Below are positions 43,082 to 63,944 of a stretch of 64,000 bases of DNA, piece by piece (position 1 is the stretch's first letter; every line of letters begins with the position of its first letter). The notes under the pieces are model-generated. The model made no database searches. It was not told the DNA's origin and saw nothing but the letters and a program-made list of their open reading frames with translations. The stretch lies in assembly GCA_963666365.2 (NCBI GenBank), contig CAXXNF010000002.1:2336001-2400000 (forward strand), written 5' to 3'. This DNA is from Syntrophales bacterium. GTDB taxonomy: Bacteria; Desulfobacterota; Syntrophia; Syntrophales; UBA2210. Both the position numbers and the translations under genes were made by a program.

Positions 43082-43110
43082 ATTTTAAGTGCTCCCCTCA
43101 TGCTTGTCAA
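43082..43110 (-). promoter_or_regulatory. Sigma70-type promoter candidate P1 for the giant gene (TTGACA-17-TAAAAT)
   Basis: Minus strand ttgaca agcatgaggggagcact taaaat, a near-consensus match about 170 bp upstream of ATG 42911. Confidence 0.65.
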
Positions 43111-44847: not shown

Positions 44848-44877
44848 TTGACAGGTATTGAAAATTGCTGGTATGGT
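44848..44877 (+). promoter_or_regulatory. Sigma70-type promoter candidate for fbp-aldolase (TTGACA-18-TATGGT)
   Basis: ttgacaggtattgaaaattgctggtatggt about 80 bp upstream of the fbp start. Confidence 0.45.
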
Positions 44878-53361: not shown

Positions 53362-55098
53362 TCATGTAAAAAACCGCCCGATGTGAAACCAGAGAACAAC
53401 ACTCACACCGGCAATAATATAATTCGTACCGAAGAGCCCTTCAAGAGCGGCATTCGAAAATTGCGCTCTTTTATCACAAAGTTCCAAACAAATCCATATA
53501 TAAAATACCGAGATAAGCAGCGCCGTCCCGACCATCGGGACGTAACCGGCGCCTACCGCGGCAATGATCATTACTGCAAGAAAAAGGGCAATCCCTTTTA
53601 TCAATCCTCGGGCCTTTGCCTCTCCCATGACCACGGGAATCGTCTCCCGCCCTACAAGCCGGTCGCTCTGTACCTCCACCATGTCGGACAATGCGGATTT
53701 CACAAAGACGATCGAAGAAATAAACAAAAAGGCGCATACCATCGTGGGCGTGAGATGGAACCCCCCTTCCATTGCGGGGATGAACGTCGTGACGATGCCC
53801 CAGGCGGCCGCCGTAAAAATGTTTTTCGACCCGGAGATGTCCCTCAAACGCTTTACTTTCAGGCTTCGCGGAAATACAACCACATTATAAAGCACGCCGA
53901 GGAGCGAAATGACAAAAAGACAGATGAGCGCACTGATGCTGAGCGCCGCGGAGATCATCAGCGCCAGAAAGAGGGCGCAGACGGCCGCGGTCATATAGCC
54001 TTTTCTGTGCCGTATGTATATTTCATCTCTGAACCCCCCGGTGATTCTCCCCAGATGGCGATCCTGCAGGCGATTGATCGTATGCATGGCATAGACATAC
54101 AATGCGGCCACACTCATGCTGAGCACATTCAGCCTCAGTCCCTGAAGAAACATGCTCACCATAGTGAGTGATGCAGCGCCGAGCACTGAATAGAGGTCTG
54201 TCTGGACGGCAAGGAACCCGGCGGAATAGACCCACTCCATTTTTCTCTGCTTCTTTCCCCGCAGATGAAATGTCAGATATTCGATTACGCTGTCGGTGAT
54301 CCAATTCGGCGTGGAAGCGCCGGCGGATACGCCGATCCGGTCAGCCCCCGCAAGGTCGATATGACGCAATTCGTCCGCCGTCTCTACATGAAATGCGGGC
54401 GTGCCCCTGCTCCGGGCAATATCGGCCAGACGTTGCGTATTGGCGCTGTTTTTCCCCCCCACGATGACCATGGCGTCTGTTTCAGAGGTCATTTTTTTTA
54501 TTTCAGCCTGCCGCCGCTCCGTGGAATCACAAATTGTATTGAATATCACCGCATGGGGAAAACGCTCGACGATAGACCCTGCAACCTCGTCAAAGCGCTT
54601 TGCATTCTGTGTGGTCTGCGCAACCACACAGACCTTGTCCAGGGGAGGAAGGCCGCTCACGTCGTCACCTTCGCCCAGCACGATCCCCTTCGACCCCGCA
54701 TAGCCGAGCAGGCCCGACACTTCCGGGTGCTCGCCGTCTCCCACAATAATGACATGATATGCTTCCCGGGCATGCTTTTTTATAATCGCCTGCACGCGGG
54801 CAACCTTTGGACAGGTCGCATCGACGATGGTTGCCCCTTTTGCCTTCAACAGCGCCCTTTCCTGAGGAGAGATGCCGTGAGCCCGTATGACGACCACGCC
54901 GCCGTCGATCTCATCGATGGTTGAGACCGGGACAATCCCCTGTTTTCTCAGGAGTTCAACCGTCTGAGGATTGTGAATAAGCTGACCGTAGGTATAGACG
55001 GGCCGCGCCCCCTTCTTACGGGCAATGTCGAGAACGATGTCCACGGCACGGCGCACCCCCATGCAAAATCCCGCTGTTTTGGCTCTTTTTATGATCAT
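53362..55098 (-). CDS. ispH: 4-hydroxy-3-methylbut-2-enyl diphosphate reductase fused to a C-terminal UbiA-like membrane domain
   Basis: AGFCMGVRRA, LIHN, IRAHG, DATCPKV, HPEV, QTT, TICDST..RQ, SANT, SAGASTP. Then about 290 aa with multiple hydrophobic helices and NRLQD / DMVEVQSDRLVGRETIPV motifs. Confidence 0.9.
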   Translation of the reverse strand: MIIKRAKTAGFCMGVRRAVDIVLDIARKKGARPVYTYGQLIHNPQTVELLRKQGIVPVSTIDEIDGGVVVIRAHGISPQERALLKAKGATIVDATCPKVARVQAIIKKHAREAYHVIIVGDGEHPEVSGLLGYAGSKGIVLGEGDDVSGLPPLDKVCVVAQTTQNAKRFDEVAGSIVERFPHAVIFNTICDSTERRQAEIKKMTSETDAMVIVGGKNSANTQRLADIARSRGTPAFHVETADELRHIDLAGADRIGVSAGASTPNWITDSVIEYLTFHLRGKKQRKMEWVYSAGFLAVQTDLYSVLGAASLTMVSMFLQGLRLNVLSMSVAALYVYAMHTINRLQDRHLGRITGGFRDEIYIRHRKGYMTAAVCALFLALMISAALSISALICLFVISLLGVLYNVVVFPRSLKVKRLRDISGSKNIFTAAAWGIVTTFIPAMEGGFHLTPTMVCAFLFISSIVFVKSALSDMVEVQSDRLVGRETIPVVMGEAKARGLIKGIALFLAVMIIAAVGAGYVPMVGTALLISVFYIWICLELCDKRAQFSNAALEGLFGTNYIIAGVSVVLWFHIGRFFT

Positions 55099-58760: not shown

Positions 58761-58986
58761 TTTCTTTCTCCTCTGTAAAGGGGGCAATGCGCACTTCATC
58801 GCCTTCCTGAAGGAGCATGTCCACTGTTCGTTCCGCCTCGTCGAGCTTGTTCATACAGAAACGTGAAAGCTCTATCCCTTCCTGAAAGGCTTTTAACGAT
58901 TCATCAAGCGTCATTTCTCCCGATTCCATCGCTTTTACGATACTTTCCAGCTTTTCCAGGGCCTTTTCAAATTTCTTTTCCGCCAT
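58750..58986 (-). CDS. xseB: Exodeoxyribonuclease VII small subunit
   Basis: [16 protein letters not shown]...LDESL..FQEG; lies between xseA and ispA. Confidence 0.95.
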   Translation of the reverse strand: MAEKKFEKALEKLESIVKAMESGEMTLDESLKAFQEGIELSRFCMNKLDEAERTVDMLLQEGDEVRIAPFTEEKESAQ

Positions 58987-60319
58987 CGCCGTTCTCCTTC
59001 ATGATGGTGGTGACATGTGCGTGGAAGGTTCCCGACGCAACCTGCACCGATACGGGGGTTCCCTCGGTGAGAGACGTCACCTCCCTGATAATCTTCCCTT
59101 CTGGCAATCGCCGTGCAATGCCGTATCCCCGGCTCAATACGGACAGGGGATTGAGACTTTCCAGCAAGGACAGAGATTCATTCAGCCGGCGCCGTGCGCG
59201 ATCCTGACAGTAACGGCACTGAAAAACAGCCTCTTTGGTCAATGTGCGCACCCGGTACCGCCCTTCGGCAATGACTCCCTTCGGGTTGAACCGCCGAAGG
59301 GCACGGGCATGCTCCTGTAAGCGCCGCTCCTTTTCGGCGAGCCCCCGGTGAATCCTCCGGGAAAGCCCGTCGCGCATGTCATCGACAGACAGTCTCAGAT
59401 CAGCGATTGTCCTTCGGGGATCCACAAGACGTTCTGCAAGAAAATGGAGGCGCTCCCGCCTGCTCTGTTGCAGATGCCGGCACACCTGCGCCATGCGATT
59501 GCCCAGGGAGAACAGTGCGCTGCCTAATTCTCTCCGGTCGGGCGCCACGATTTCCGCCGCCGCCGAGGGCGTAGGCGCCCTCAGGTCGGCCGTAAAATCG
59601 GCAATGGTGAAATCTATCTCGTGTCCCACCGCCGATACGACGGGTATGCGGGATCTGTAGATTGCCCGTGCCACCCGTTCGTCGTTGAAGGGATAAAGGT
59701 CCTCCATGGAACCCCCTCCCCGGGTTACAATGATCACATCCACATCGGTCCGGCTGTTGAGCAGATCAACGGCGTGAGCGATCTCGGCGGCCGCTTCCAC
59801 TCCCTGGACCCTGACGGGCACGATCACAATATTGCCTGAGGGGAATCTTCTTTTTGTGATATTCAGAATATCACGTATCGCCGCCCCCGTGGGCGATGTG
59901 ACAATCCCGATTTTTTCGGGAAAACGCGGAAGGGGCCGTTTATGGGCCCTGTCGAAAAGCCCTTCCCCTTCAAGCCTTCGTTTCAGTTGCTCGAAGGCGA
60001 TTTGAAGGGCGCCGATCCCCCGTGGTTCCGCGGCCTCGACAATAAGCTGATATTCGCCACGGGGAACATAGACTGAAAGACGCGCACGACAGATGACGGC
60101 AAGTCCCTCTTCCATGTCGAACCCTATGGCGTTGCCGCTCCGGCGGAACACCACGGCCCGCACCTGGCTTCCCTCGTCTTTGAGGGTAAAATAGAGGTGC
60201 CCCGATCCGGGCCGGCGCAGATTTGAAATTTCACCGGCCACCCAGAGAACGCCGAATCCAGTCTCCAGGTACGCCTTTATATTGGCCGTCAGTTCTGTCA
60301 CAGTAAGAATATGTTCCAT
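58967..60319 (-). CDS. xseA: Exodeoxyribonuclease VII large subunit
   Basis: [58 protein letters not shown]. Confidence 0.96.
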
Positions 60320-60340: not shown

Positions 60341-62098
60341 CTATTTTGCAGTCCCTTTTATTTCTCTTCTCCGTGAGGTGCCTCTCATTTTTTTCAACAC
60401 GTTCGATTCGATCCGTTTTGCCTGTTCCATCATGCCCGTCACATCATCCCCTTCAGCTTCGGGATCGAATTCCGCCTTTTCACTGATGCCGAATCTCATT
60501 CTCAGCACCTTCTCTTCTCGAGGAGTAAGCGTTGCCAGAATATTCCTCGTCTGTTTTGCCAGATCCATGCTCATGGTGGCATCGGAGGGCGACATAATTT
60601 TCTTATCCTCGATGAAATCTCCCAGAGAACTGTCCTCTTCCTCTCCGATGGGCGTTTCAAGAGATATAGGTTCTTTGGCGATTTTCAAGACTTTTCTGAC
60701 TTTTTCCAGAGGAAATTCCATCTTTTGCGCAATTTCCTCGGGGTTTGGCTCTCTTCCCAATTCCTGCACAAGGTAACGGGAAGTTCTGATCAGTTTATTT
60801 ATGGTTTCTATCATGTGCACGGGAATGCGAATCGTTCGTGCCTGGTCGGCGATCGCCCTGGTAATTGCCTGGCGAATCCACCAGGTGGCATAGGTGGAAA
60901 ACTTGTATCCACGTTGATATTCAAACTTTTCCACCGCTTTCATCAGCCCGATGTTCCCTTCCTGAATCAGGTCGAGAAACTGCAAGCCGCGGTTGGTGTA
61001 TTTTTTGGCGATACTTACCACAAGTCTCAGATTCGCCTGAATAAGTTTCTGTTTTGCCTCGTTTGCCTCAGATTCCCCTTTATTGATGAGTGCCACCAGC
61101 ACTTTCAACGATTCGGTCGATGCACCGATCTTGTCGGCAATCGCCCTTCTTTCGCGGCGGGAGTTCTTTACCACCTTCTCGGATTCCTTGAGCCTGGCAA
61201 GAGGAATATTCGCTTCTTTTGCAATTGCCTGTTCCTGTTCGGGTTTTTTCCTCATACGCGCACAGAGGTCGTCCAGATTTTTCAGCGAGAGGCCCGTTTT
61301 CTCCTTGCATGCCTGTATCTGGTCTTCCATCACCCTGATACGTTCTACATTCTTTTTAAGCTTAGCCACCATCCCGTTCACCCGCCGCTTGCTGAAATTT
61401 ATCTCTTTGCAAAGGGCGATGATGCGCTGGGTATTTTTTTCGATGTCTGAAGCGAGGTGCGCTTTACGGGCTTCGTCAATTCCTTTTTCCCTCAGTTCCC
61501 CTCTCAGGACGGTATTTGCCTCATGAACCGCACGAATCTGCTCGATGAGCGCCTGCACCCGCTCAATATGCACCTCTTCTTCCACAAACCCCGCTTCATC
61601 CTCAAGGCTGTCGATCACGCTTTTTATACGAATGTCGCCGTTTTTGAGCCGTTCTCCGATCCTGACCACCTCTTCCACGAAATAGGGGAGATTGAAAAGG
61701 GTCTGCATTACTTTGCGCTCCCCCTCTTCGATCTGTTTGGCGATTTCTACTTCTTCCTCTCGGCTCAGAAGGGAAACAAGCCCCATTTCCCGCAAATAGA
61801 GCTTTACGGGGTCTCCGGTCTTGCCCAGAGGAGAGGCCATGGCCGAAGGCTCTTTGTCGAGTTCTTTCTGATCGTCGGAGTCATCGGAAAATTTACTTCT
61901 CCCGGTGGGACTCTCCTTTTCCGCATCTATGACATCTATATTTTTTTCACCGAAAAACACAATAATATCGTCAATCTGATCGGAAGATACGACATCGGAC
62001 GGCAGCATGTCATTCATGTCATCATAGGTAAGAAAACCCTTTTCCTCACCCAGAGAAATCAGCTTTTTCACTTCATCCGAGTTAATGACTCTTTTCAT
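60341..62098 (-). CDS. rpoD: Primary-type sigma70 factor RpoD with degenerate region 4.2
   Basis: Region 1.1, 1.2 ([11 protein letters not shown]), 2 ([42 protein letters not shown]) and 3 are intact; directly downstream of dnaG. C-terminal HTH is non-consensus. Start at ATG 62098 after AAGGAG. Confidence 0.93.
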
Positions 62099-62147
62099 GT
62101 AGTTTTTCTCCTTGTATGCCGGCGGCATTGATCATTCATATCACTCG

Positions 62148-63944
62148 TCACAGAAAGGTTTCCTGCGACTGGAGCCGTTTTTCTTCTCCGAGCAAACGCT
62201 CCTTTTCAAGCAGCAGCCTGCGGCAGAGATCTCCATCACCTTTTTCACGGGCCGTCACCATTTGCCGCATCAGCATTCGATGGCGCTCCTTGTACCATTT
62301 TGCCTTAATTTTCAGTATAGTATCACGAAACACCCTGTCGATGATTTCTTCTTTTTCAGGAGAATCCTCCATTGCCAACTTGAGAAGGGCGTCTCTCACC
62401 GCCCTGTCGTCCATGCTGTCGGCGATATCCGATATGGTCACCGCCTGCCGGTTATCATAGGCCGCACACACCCGCTCGGCAGCCGCCTTCAGGCGGGGAT
62501 CGGTAAAAAATCCCAGGATCCGCTCATTTTGGATCAGCGGTATCTTGTGGGAATATTCGACCATCAAATAGAGGCCATACAGTTCTATCGGCTCGAGTCT
62601 GCCCGCCGCCGGCTCTGCATGGGGCTTCACATTCGGCACTTCAGCGCTCCTCTTCGTCGGCGCCTTTTTTACCCGATCCTTGATGAGCGATTCATCGAGC
62701 CCCAGCTTTTCAGCCACCCTTTTGATGAATAGATTCCGCTGAATTACATCGGAAATGGCACTGATCAATGAAATCGCCCTCCCGGCAAGTACGGTCTGTT
62801 CTTCCATCGATCGATTGTCCCCCATGACGGAGTCGATATAATAATCGACCATGGACGGGGCATGGGCAATCAATTCGTCCATTGCATCCCTGCCATGGGT
62901 CCTCACGTAATCATCGGGATCATGACCCTCCGGCAGAGGGACTATTCGCGCACGGACCTCCGCCTCGAGGAAAAGCGGCAGACTCCGTTCTATGGCAGTG
63001 CGCCCCCCCGCGTCACCGTCGTAGAGGAGCACGACATTCCGGGTAAACCTTCTGAGCAGTTCCACCTGGCGCGGGGTAAGGGCTGTGCCGAGCGTGGCCA
63101 CCACATTTCTGATACCCGCATTCCACAGCGAAAGCAGATCGAAATACCCCTCTACAATGATGCAGCCGTCACTTCGCTGAATATCTCCCTTTGTACGATA
63201 CAGACCGTAAAGATTGTCTCCCTTTATATAGAGGGGAGATTCCGGAGAATTAAGATATTTCGGTTCCTCGCCTCCCAGCGCCCTCCCGCCGAAGGCAACC
63301 ACATCTCCGTTCACATTTTCTATCGGCAGCATCAGCCTGTTGCGGAAACGATCATAACAGGCGGATTCATTTTTAACGACCAGAAGCCCCGCTTTCTCTG
63401 CGAGCCCCTGTGAAATTTTAGAAGCGGCAAAATAACTCCTGAGGTTCCCCCATCCCTCCGGGGCATACCCGATCTGAAATGTTTCGATGAGGGAAGCCCC
63501 CACCCCCCGTGCGTCAAGGTAATCACGGGCGATCCGCCCCTTTTCCGATGAAAAGTTCCTCCGATAATACTCGGCGGTCATGCGGTGCAGCGCCAGCAGA
63601 TTTTCCCGCTCACTGTGCTTCCTTTTTTCACCTGCCGTCATCCGCCGCAGGGGGATCTCAATACCGGCTCTGGCGGCAAGGTGTCGAACCGCCTCGGGAA
63701 ACGTGCAGGTGTTCACCTTCATCAGAAACGAATATACATTCCCCCCTTCGCCGCACCCATAGCACCGGTATATCTGCTTTTCAGGGTTTACCGTAAATGA
63801 TGGCGCTTTCTCTTTATGAAAGGGACAGAGGCCTACGTAATGCCTGCCTGCTTTTTTCAGCGTAACGAATTCAGAAATGAGATCGACGATATCCGTCCTG
63901 TGCTTTACCTCTTCGACTATTTCGTGAGGAATATATCCGTTCAA
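62148..63944 (-). CDS. dnaG: DNA primase
   Basis: CPFH.EK.PSF..CYGC zinc finger, DRFRNR, FGGR, KYLNSPE, EGYFD, YDGD.GG, DPDD. Confidence 0.97.
   Translation of the reverse strand: MNGYIPHEIVEEVKHRTDIVDLISEFVTLKKAGRHYVGLCPFHKEKAPSFTVNPEKQIYRCYGCGEGGNVYSFLMKVNTCTFPEAVRHLAARAGIEIPLRRMTAGEKRKHSERENLLALHRMTAEYYRRNFSSEKGRIARDYLDARGVGASLIETFQIGYAPEGWGNLRSYFAASKISQGLAEKAGLLVVKNESACYDRFRNRLMLPIENVNGDVVAFGGRALGGEEPKYLNSPESPLYIKGDNLYGLYRTKGDIQRSDGCIIVEGYFDLLSLWNAGIRNVVATLGTALTPRQVELLRRFTRNVVLLYDGDAGGRTAIERSLPLFLEAEVRARIVPLPEGHDPDDYVRTHGRDAMDELIAHAPSMVDYYIDSVMGDNRSMEEQTVLAGRAISLISAISDVIQRNLFIKRVAEKLGLDESLIKDRVKKAPTKRSAEVPNVKPHAEPAAGRLEPIELYGLYLMVEYSHKIPLIQNERILGFFTDPRLKAAAERVCAAYDNRQAVTISDIADSMDDRAVRDALLKLAMEDSPEKEEIIDRVFRDTILKIKAKWYKERHRMLMRQMVTAREKGDGDLCRRLLLEKERLLGEEKRLQSQETFL

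Follow-up and report, generated by a model that had tools for sequence, protein, structure and literature searches.

Few DNA-reading modules in bacteria are as conserved as region 4.2 of the primary sigma factor, which textbook models, to our knowledge, always place in the same chain as the reader of the -10 box. The split sigmas that we know of are all alternative, phage or conjugative-element sigmas and are divided between region 2 and region 4. Two-subunit sigmas include B. subtilis SigO-RsoA, Tn916 Sig7-Sig8, T4 gp55/gp33 and SPO1 gp33/gp34, in which -10 and -35 reading are divided between two polypeptides, as described in a preprint (bioRxiv 10.64898/2026.10.01.756105). Here we describe the primary sigma gene rpoD of a Syntrophales bacterium, which lies in a stretch of 64,000 nucleotides (assembly GCA_963666365.2, contig CAXXNF010000002.1, positions 2,336,001 to 2,400,000 of the forward strand), called the window below. 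Its product has region 2 but no intact region 4.2, and a small protein encoded elsewhere in the genome, here called S4P, has region 4.2 only, so that the -10 and -35 modules are found on separate polypeptides. We consider it probable, though by some distance not assured, that the two make up a split primary sigma, in which RpoD would supply regions 1.1 to 4.1 and S4P would supply region 4.2 in trans, rebuilding region 4 on RpoD region 4.1.

The RpoD described here resembles a canonical group 1 sigma-70 (RpoD/SigA) in its regions 1.1, 1.2, 2, 3 and 4.1, its linkage to dnaG, its pass of the RpoD equivalog model and its collinear C-terminus; it differs in that the helix-turn-helix (HTH) of region 4.2 is missing in cis and the matching module sits in a separate gene. 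In comparison with the known split sigmas, it is the housekeeping sigma that appears to be divided here, and the division falls inside region 4, between 4.1 and 4.2. Furthermore, a decayed copy of 4.2 is kept on RpoD, the two genes lie 1.69 Mb apart and the small subunit is rich in cysteine. Phage T4 offers a different precedent: AsiA remodels an intact region 4 and MotA reads a different box, both being phage proteins that act on a host sigma. The likeness to this sigma appropriation would lie in a trans protein on sigma region 4 that takes over recognition of the upstream element; no sequence similarity of S4P to AsiA or MotA was seen, its Pfam and PHROGs matches being to sigma region 4 only. 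The WhiB-like (Wbl) proteins of actinobacteria are small iron-sulfur proteins with four cysteines whose binding partner is region 4 of the primary sigma. No Whib domain was found among the Pfam matches of S4P at E <= 1, its cysteine spacing is unlike the Wbl pattern as we know it, and it adds a sigma-type HTH. A full-text literature search, which covered few subscription journals, returned no paper that describes, for this group, decay of RpoD region 4.2 or a region 4.2 protein standing alone.

The rpoD gene is a minus-strand open reading frame (ORF) at window positions 60341-62128 that encodes 595 amino acids followed by a stop codon, with dnaG as its 5' neighbour and xseA as its 3' neighbour, as identified by Pfam. 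The protein scored above the Pfam cut-offs for regions 1.1 (r1_1, 72.7 bits), 1.2 (r1_2, 48.9 bits), 2 (r2, 85.1 bits) and 3 (r3, 103.1 bits), and it passed the full-length NCBIfam equivalog NF004208 with 624.4 bits against a cut-off of 555. The Sigma70_r4 profile (PF04545) matched residues 531-547 only, covering profile positions 2-18 of 50 with 21.6 bits against a cut-off of 24.1, and the RpoD C-terminal model TIGR02393 (RpoD_Cterm) was narrowly failed (349.9 against 354). Hence RpoD has the regions 1.1 to 3, the equivalog status, the position as sole primary sigma and the dnaG linkage that mark a group 1 sigma, and it lacks a complete region 4. An earlier note on this DNA, made from its letters alone, had described a dnaG-linked primary sigma with normal regions 1.1-3 and 4.1 but without the -35 recognition helix, and had proposed the two C-terminal models as a check; its description is borne out by the scores above, by the dnaG neighbour and by the conserved columns of region 4.1, and both models fell below their cut-offs. 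The 34 residues that it quoted for positions 60371..60472 (minus strand) match our translation of RpoD residues 553-586 exactly, and this span lies outside the Sigma70_r4 match.

No canonical region 4.2 was found in another frame at the 3' end of rpoD, where both other frames are stop-rich. In a profile-profile alignment the RpoD C-terminus was collinear with canonical RpoD C-termini across 96 columns, and under the canonical recognition-helix residues T-R-E-R-I-R-Q it shows M-M-E-Q-A-K-R. A related-locus search, one of whose two patterns fits ordinary RpoD genes everywhere, gave 80 loci that were all ordinary sigma genes and uninformative about S4P; some of them served as canonical C-termini in alignment A3. 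Because the other frames are closed and the alignment is collinear, the odd segment is the positional homologue of region 4.2 and not a frameshift product, in agreement with the gap-free alignment that the note had reported.

Three segments can be told apart at the C-terminus. Region 4.1 (residues 514-546; 60491..60589, minus strand) consists of two helices whose columns are invariant or nearly invariant in alignment A2, and it is the predicted docking surface for a region 4.2 supplied in trans. An AlphaFold2 (AF2) model of the 108-residue C-terminal piece placed these helices at 27-45 and 49-59, with a predicted local distance difference test (pLDDT) of 79-89. A variable acidic linker (residues 549-565; 60434..60484, minus strand) stands at the place of HTH helix 1 and the start of the recognition helix; helix 1 was absent from the model and the linker was of low confidence. 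The remainder (residues 566-595; 60344..60433, minus strand) is a class-conserved remnant helix with a basic tail, which AF2 modelled with modest confidence as one long helix (75-95), the mean pLDDT of the piece being 67.6. RpoD's own region 4.2 is decayed, and its -35 HTH has been lost in cis.

One RpoD-like gene was found in each of 40 of the 41 genomes searched (our genome and 40 relatives), with 58-84% identity at E <= 1e-50. We read 34 of the C-termini, comprising 30 loci (our own and 29 relatives) and then two more genomes of the class and two of another family of the phylum, designated f25; the class, represented by 32 loci including our own, is a single order in this sample. Decay of the same kind was seen throughout, and none of the 34 carries a canonical recognition helix. 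All 30 of the first loci share a common layout in which an invariant region 4.1 is followed by about 17-21 variable, mostly acidic residues and then by the conserved helix and basic tail. The linker has no conserved column in A2 and varies in length. Recognisable remnants of 4.2 survive in some families (for example TRERARQIE in L043), and in L037 and L042 the segment is proline-rich or otherwise unrecognisable.

The ratio of nonsynonymous to synonymous substitution rates (dN/dS) was <= 0.03 for regions 3.2 to 4.1, 0.09-0.89 for the linker and 0-0.22 for the remnant helix and tail; these Nei-Gojobori values come from close pairs and short segments, with saturation in several pairs, and are therefore rough. 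Judged by these values, the linker that replaces the HTH appears to evolve almost neutrally. The alignment of orthologues and the dN/dS values, both of which the note had called for, mark the decay of RpoD region 4.2 as a lineage trait rather than an assembly error, and the misassembly that the note had named as a possible refutation is itself refuted by the comparison, 34 C-termini out of 34 being decayed. A tree of the RpoD core was built from 30 rows, comprising 16 class loci (the other 16 of the 32, near-duplicates, were omitted), 11 canonical loci and three from f25. It recovers the class as one clade with support 97/96; its branches are long and it does not fix the position of f25, so that the decay may have arisen once or twice.

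The f25 loci (L097/L098; L099 = G209:C2:263588-267334) come from genomes of 1.9 Mb, which encode a 578-residue RpoD-like sigma in which region 4.2 is even more decayed, and S4P is also present. No dnaG was recognisable in the flanks read beside either f25 sigma gene. The f25 state may be an intermediate or a parallel stage of the same transition.

A search of the whole genome for the sigma-70 family gave five loci with Sigma70_r2, namely RpoD, sigma-32 (identified by NF005143, 316 against 241 bits), FliA/WhiG and two extracytoplasmic function (ECF) sigmas, and no second primary or group 2 sigma. The note's suggestion that a second RpoD elsewhere might share the duties is therefore not supported for this genome, which has only sigma-32, FliA and the two ECF sigmas besides RpoD, and the 40 genomes have one RpoD-like match each. 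As a separate observation, one genome of the class without detectable S4P carries an extra 321-residue sigma with an intact region 4.2 (TLEEIGRKFGLTRERVRQIE) at L100 (G078:C1:297311-300958).

A scan of the whole genome with PF04545 gave a stand-alone region 4.2 match of 50.6 bits in a small frame at G000:C2:702522-702620, covering profile positions 18-50, the part that RpoD is without. The S4P gene to which it belongs (G000:C2:702399-702677; L008:1378-1656) encodes 92 amino acids and lies outside the window. Its start is most likely a GTG that follows a purine-rich stretch; in relatives a Met start stands two or three residues ahead of a conserved LYxCKK. The protein consists of a cysteine-rich N-terminal half and a canonical group 1 region 4.2 with the recognition-helix motif. 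Against PF04545 it scored 49.4 bits (cut-off 24.1) over the 4.2 half only, again profile positions 18-50, and its C-terminal half matches the last ~40 positions of the RpoD equivalog models. Among PDB structures it matched region 4.2 of group 1 sigmas (best E 2.7e-16), whereas the matches to SigB and RpoS were much weaker, and in a profile-profile alignment it was 61% identical to canonical 4.2 and tail. The PHROGs match was to the generic sigma-factor family phrog_351 only.

The N-terminal 39 residues of S4P gave no match in Pfam, the PDB or region 4.1 profiles. The idea that this half is a diverged region 4.1 was unsupported, as hhalign covered columns 40-85 only and the PDB profile matches positions 41-84 only. 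Four cysteines are invariant in alignment A1 (C5, C16, C21 and C33, spaced C-x10-C-x4-C-x11-C) and a fifth is nearly so.

Full-length S4P was found in 37 of the 41 genomes at E <= 1e-40; across the class it occurs at E <= 1e-8 in 147 genomes out of 151, and its identity of 72-97% exceeds that of RpoD overall (58-84%). The dN/dS of S4P is ~0-0.03 in the HTH and, in the N-terminal half, 0.003-0.08. The gene is convergent with genes for enoyl-CoA hydratase and SppA in 30 of 38 loci, and because this neighbourhood is conserved S4P appears to be a vertically inherited core gene. In a phylum sample of 201 genomes, full-length S4P occurred among the matches listed only in six class and two f25 genomes; the remaining matches listed covered the 4.2 half only, nearly all at the end of frames of 460-700 residues that are ordinary RpoD, and 77 weaker matches lie beyond those listed. 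A profile of the S4P N-terminal domain matched 16 of 401 phylum genomes, namely 14 of 14 from the class, two of two from f25 and none of the 385 others. As judged from these 16 of 401 sampled genomes, and with RpoD decay read in the class and f25, S4P occurs exactly where RpoD has lost region 4.2.

The family is large, with 7502 members at E <= 1e-5 in a large protein collection, where relatives from Smithella and Syntrophales metagenome-assembled genomes are named 'hypothetical protein' or 'sigma factor-like helix-turn-helix DNA-binding protein'. We also noted a wider set of proteins of 80-170 residues (P0131-P0264) with the pattern Cys...Cys...Cys-W...NC(S/T) followed by a sigma-type 4.2 HTH, some of which have diverged recognition helices (TREGVR, TRMRICQ). 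The ESM Atlas clusters nearest to S4P are unnamed Sigma70_r4 proteins of Thermodesulfobacteriota and two mostly viral clusters, which we regard as a lead only.

We scanned the genome (4.0 Mb, two contigs) for exact TTGACA paired with a hexamer of <= 2 mismatches to TATAAT at spacers of 8 to 29 bp. Spacers of 16, 17 and 18 bp gave 124, 195 and 120 pairs, against ~92 at other spacers. The signal comes out in a crude non-coding set (0.49 Mb outside greedily chosen ORFs of >= 120 amino acids), with 52, 112 and 67 pairs over a background of 31.7 +/- 8.5, whereas coding DNA showed no peak (66, 73 and 43 pairs; background 55.8 +/- 10). Five scrambled hexamers gave no comparable spacer peak genome-wide. 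Counted from the other side, 3070 non-coding -10-like sites are preceded by exact TTGACA 15 times at spacer 16, 28 times at spacer 17 and 15 times at spacer 18; almost all other spacers have 0-5 occurrences, the exception being nine at spacer 4. The -35 boxes are still in use in this organism, and the enrichment at spacer 17 means that the cell has a working TTGACA reader, kept at the usual distance from the -10 reader.

An extended -10 signal was looked for at the same 3070 sites; TG was not enriched (0.059 against ~0.06 at neighbouring offsets), which speaks against extended -10 elements as compensation for lost -35 reading. The note had raised the possibility that this sigma reads only -10 or extended -10 promoters, and this is not supported, given the absence of TG enrichment together with the enrichment of TTGACA at 16-18 bp. 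The two TTGACA boxes that it had listed in the window are both present, at 43105-43110 (minus strand) and 44848-44853 (plus strand). They belong to the promoter-like sites TTGACA-N17-TAAAAT (43082..43110, minus strand) and TTGACA-N18-TATGGT (44848..44877, plus strand), both found by pattern search and candidates only. The window count of three TTGACA-N15-19-TANNNT sites is not above chance alone (0.85 expected; three reached in 7 of 100 shuffles).

Upstream of the S4P gene itself an exact TTGACA occurs in 32 of 38 loci, and in 27 of the 38 the two hexamers, 16-18 bp apart, together depart from TTGACA and TATAAT at no more than two positions, the spacer sequences being different, although these loci are relatives and not independent. 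In our genome this promoter lies at about L008:1249-1282. The retention of TTGACA in otherwise diverged upstream DNA indicates a working -35 reader, and the box in front of S4P suggests positive feedback. A 46-nucleotide promoter-like stretch (TTGACA-N17-TATACG with identical flanks) was also seen three times on G000:C1, at offsets 135351, 528245 and 733203; a repeated mobile element probably carries it as its outward or own promoter.

We then modelled RpoD residues 515-595 (34-row alignment) together with S4P (38-row alignment) and a zinc ion. The interaction prediction score from aligned errors (ipSAE) was 0.64, 0.67 and 0.67, compared with 0.00 in all three controls; at least 78% of the contacts were common between runs and the partner pLDDT was at least 72. 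In calibration 116 of 157 solved complexes attained the same mark, as did 2 of 215 mismatched pairs, counts that hold only roughly here. The closest contacts are those between the second 4.1 helix, R50-G60 of the RpoD piece, and the hydrophobic face of the S4P HTH, formed by F43, L45, V48, M52, I59, I62, E63, A66 and L67. Packing of this kind between 4.1 and the HTH is seen inside the ordinary region 4 of solved structures. A second, less familiar interface was modelled between the remnant RpoD helix (79-94) and the N-terminal half of S4P (1-43). What the model shows is that the residues required for this packing are retained in the two proteins; binding itself is not implied by it. Of the explanations offered in the note, that of a partner for -35 recognition is the one favoured by these data, given a stand-alone, conserved S4P that is modelled on RpoD region 4.1.

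In the split primary sigma that we propose, RpoD regions 1.1 to 4.1 would still bind core RNA polymerase, read the -10 box and melt the DNA, while its region 4.2, now an acidic linker, a remnant helix and a basic tail, would be unable to read the -35 box. S4P would dock on RpoD region 4.1 to give a composite sigma region 4 in trans, and the remnant helix could hold the N-terminal half of S4P as an extra clamp for the non-covalent module. The composite module would then sit at the usual place of region 4 and read a TTGACA box that precedes the -10 box by 17 bp. The physical association of RpoD with S4P, its geometry and the role of S4P as the -35 reader are what we infer. It is also conceivable, though we put it forward only tentatively, that the S4P cysteines hold zinc or an iron-sulfur cluster and that folding or docking depends on metal or redox state, the organisms of the class being strict anaerobes. 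The holoenzyme might then have two states, one with S4P that reads both boxes and one lacking S4P that reads the -10 box alone, and the transcriptome that relies on -35 boxes might be tuned in one step, with positive feedback at the S4P gene's own promoter.

Several points weigh against a split primary sigma. S4P was undetected, even by profile, in five genomes of the class with decayed RpoD (G006, G029, G078, G111 and G132), which are 90-100% complete; four of the five have an S4P-carrying congener, which makes gaps in the assemblies the likely, though unproven, reason. One of the two f25 genomes, G209, also encodes a 497-residue sigma with a canonical region 4.2, so S4P is able to coexist with an intact sigma. 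The co-occurrence in the class and f25 amounts to at most two independent cases, that is, one or two evolutionary events. AF2 modelled S4P alone poorly (mean pLDDT 56.4, with C-terminal helices only). The core contacts predicted for the complex are those found inside an ordinary region 4, and the job used our own alignments and a zinc ion, so that the score may echo solved structures of sigma region 4 that the predictor has memorised. Finally, the promoter statistics show that there is some reader of TTGACA at the right distance, not that this reader is S4P.

The coexistence in G209 would sit well with S4P being a free-standing TTGACA-binding factor, either a general activator that recruits a -35-blind RpoD holoenzyme in the manner of a class II activator, or a repressor. 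Such a role would also suit its own promoter, its lack of linkage to rpoD and the many small Sigma70_r4 proteins of metagenomes and phages. We nevertheless think it unlikely, since the spacing between -35 boxes and -10 hexamers is the canonical 16-18 bp, as a reader fixed in the holoenzyme would yield, S4P is restricted to lineages whose RpoD has lost region 4.2, and the complex model puts it on RpoD region 4.1; a pure repressor would moreover leave unexplained the hundreds of promoters that keep their -35 box. S4P might instead replace the whole of region 4 on the beta flap tip, leaving RpoD 4.1 and the remnant helix as a tether or with another role. The flap-tip helix of rpoB is indeed canonical and unchanged, and S4P keeps the full 4.2 and C-terminal tail of group 1 sigmas, but its N-terminal 39 residues have no profile similarity to region 4.1, while RpoD region 4.1 is invariant, as expected of the flap-binding part, and the model of RpoD and S4P alone pairs RpoD 4.1 with the S4P HTH. 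On this evidence replacement at the flap tip seems improbable.

It is more doubtful still, to the point of being hard to credit, that RpoD itself reads the -35 box through a rewired remnant helix and basic tail, with S4P unrelated. The remnant helix and its RRR tail are conserved across the class and under purifying selection, yet HTH helix 1 is absent from the AF2 model, the base-contacting positions differ between families, the L037 and L042 segments are proline-rich or unlike a helix, and the preceding segment is acidic and nearly neutral although the promoters keep a standard TTGACA box. As for an assembly error or a decaying pseudogene, the frame is intact, the architecture is the same in 34 of 34 orthologues from independent assemblies and the flanks are under strong purifying selection, which leaves this explanation a negligible chance.

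The genes on either side of rpoD lie on the same strand. Directly upstream, dnaG (primase; 62148..63944, minus strand) carries the Pfam domains Zn_ribbon_DnaG, DNAG_N, Toprim and DnaB_bind, and directly downstream xseA (exonuclease VII large subunit; 58967..60319, minus strand) matches Exonuc_VII_L with 341.7 bits. Elsewhere in the window, a 578-residue ORF at 53362-55098 (minus strand) combines a complete IspH/LytB domain (308.9 bits) with a UbiA-type prenyltransferase membrane domain (49.1 bits) fused at the C-terminus, and its neighbourhood is isoprenoid in character, with dxs-like and ispA-like ORFs. Outside the window, identical 254-residue frames for a LuxR/GerE-type response regulator occur ~35 kb apart at G000:C2:1888541-1888672 (L011) and C2:1923421-1923552 (L012), and a third, diverged copy (L013) adjoins L011, which suggests a recent segmental duplication.

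The Syntrophales are abundant syntrophs of methanogenic digesters and sediments. From the sequences at hand, the whole class appears to have moved its region 4.2 module to a separate, essential-looking gene. If this is true, it would be the first split housekeeping sigma, with region 4 assembled from two chains, and it would provide a natural system in which to study the contribution of -35 recognition to global transcription. It would also give a function to the thousands of metagenomic 'hypothetical proteins' that make up the S4P family.

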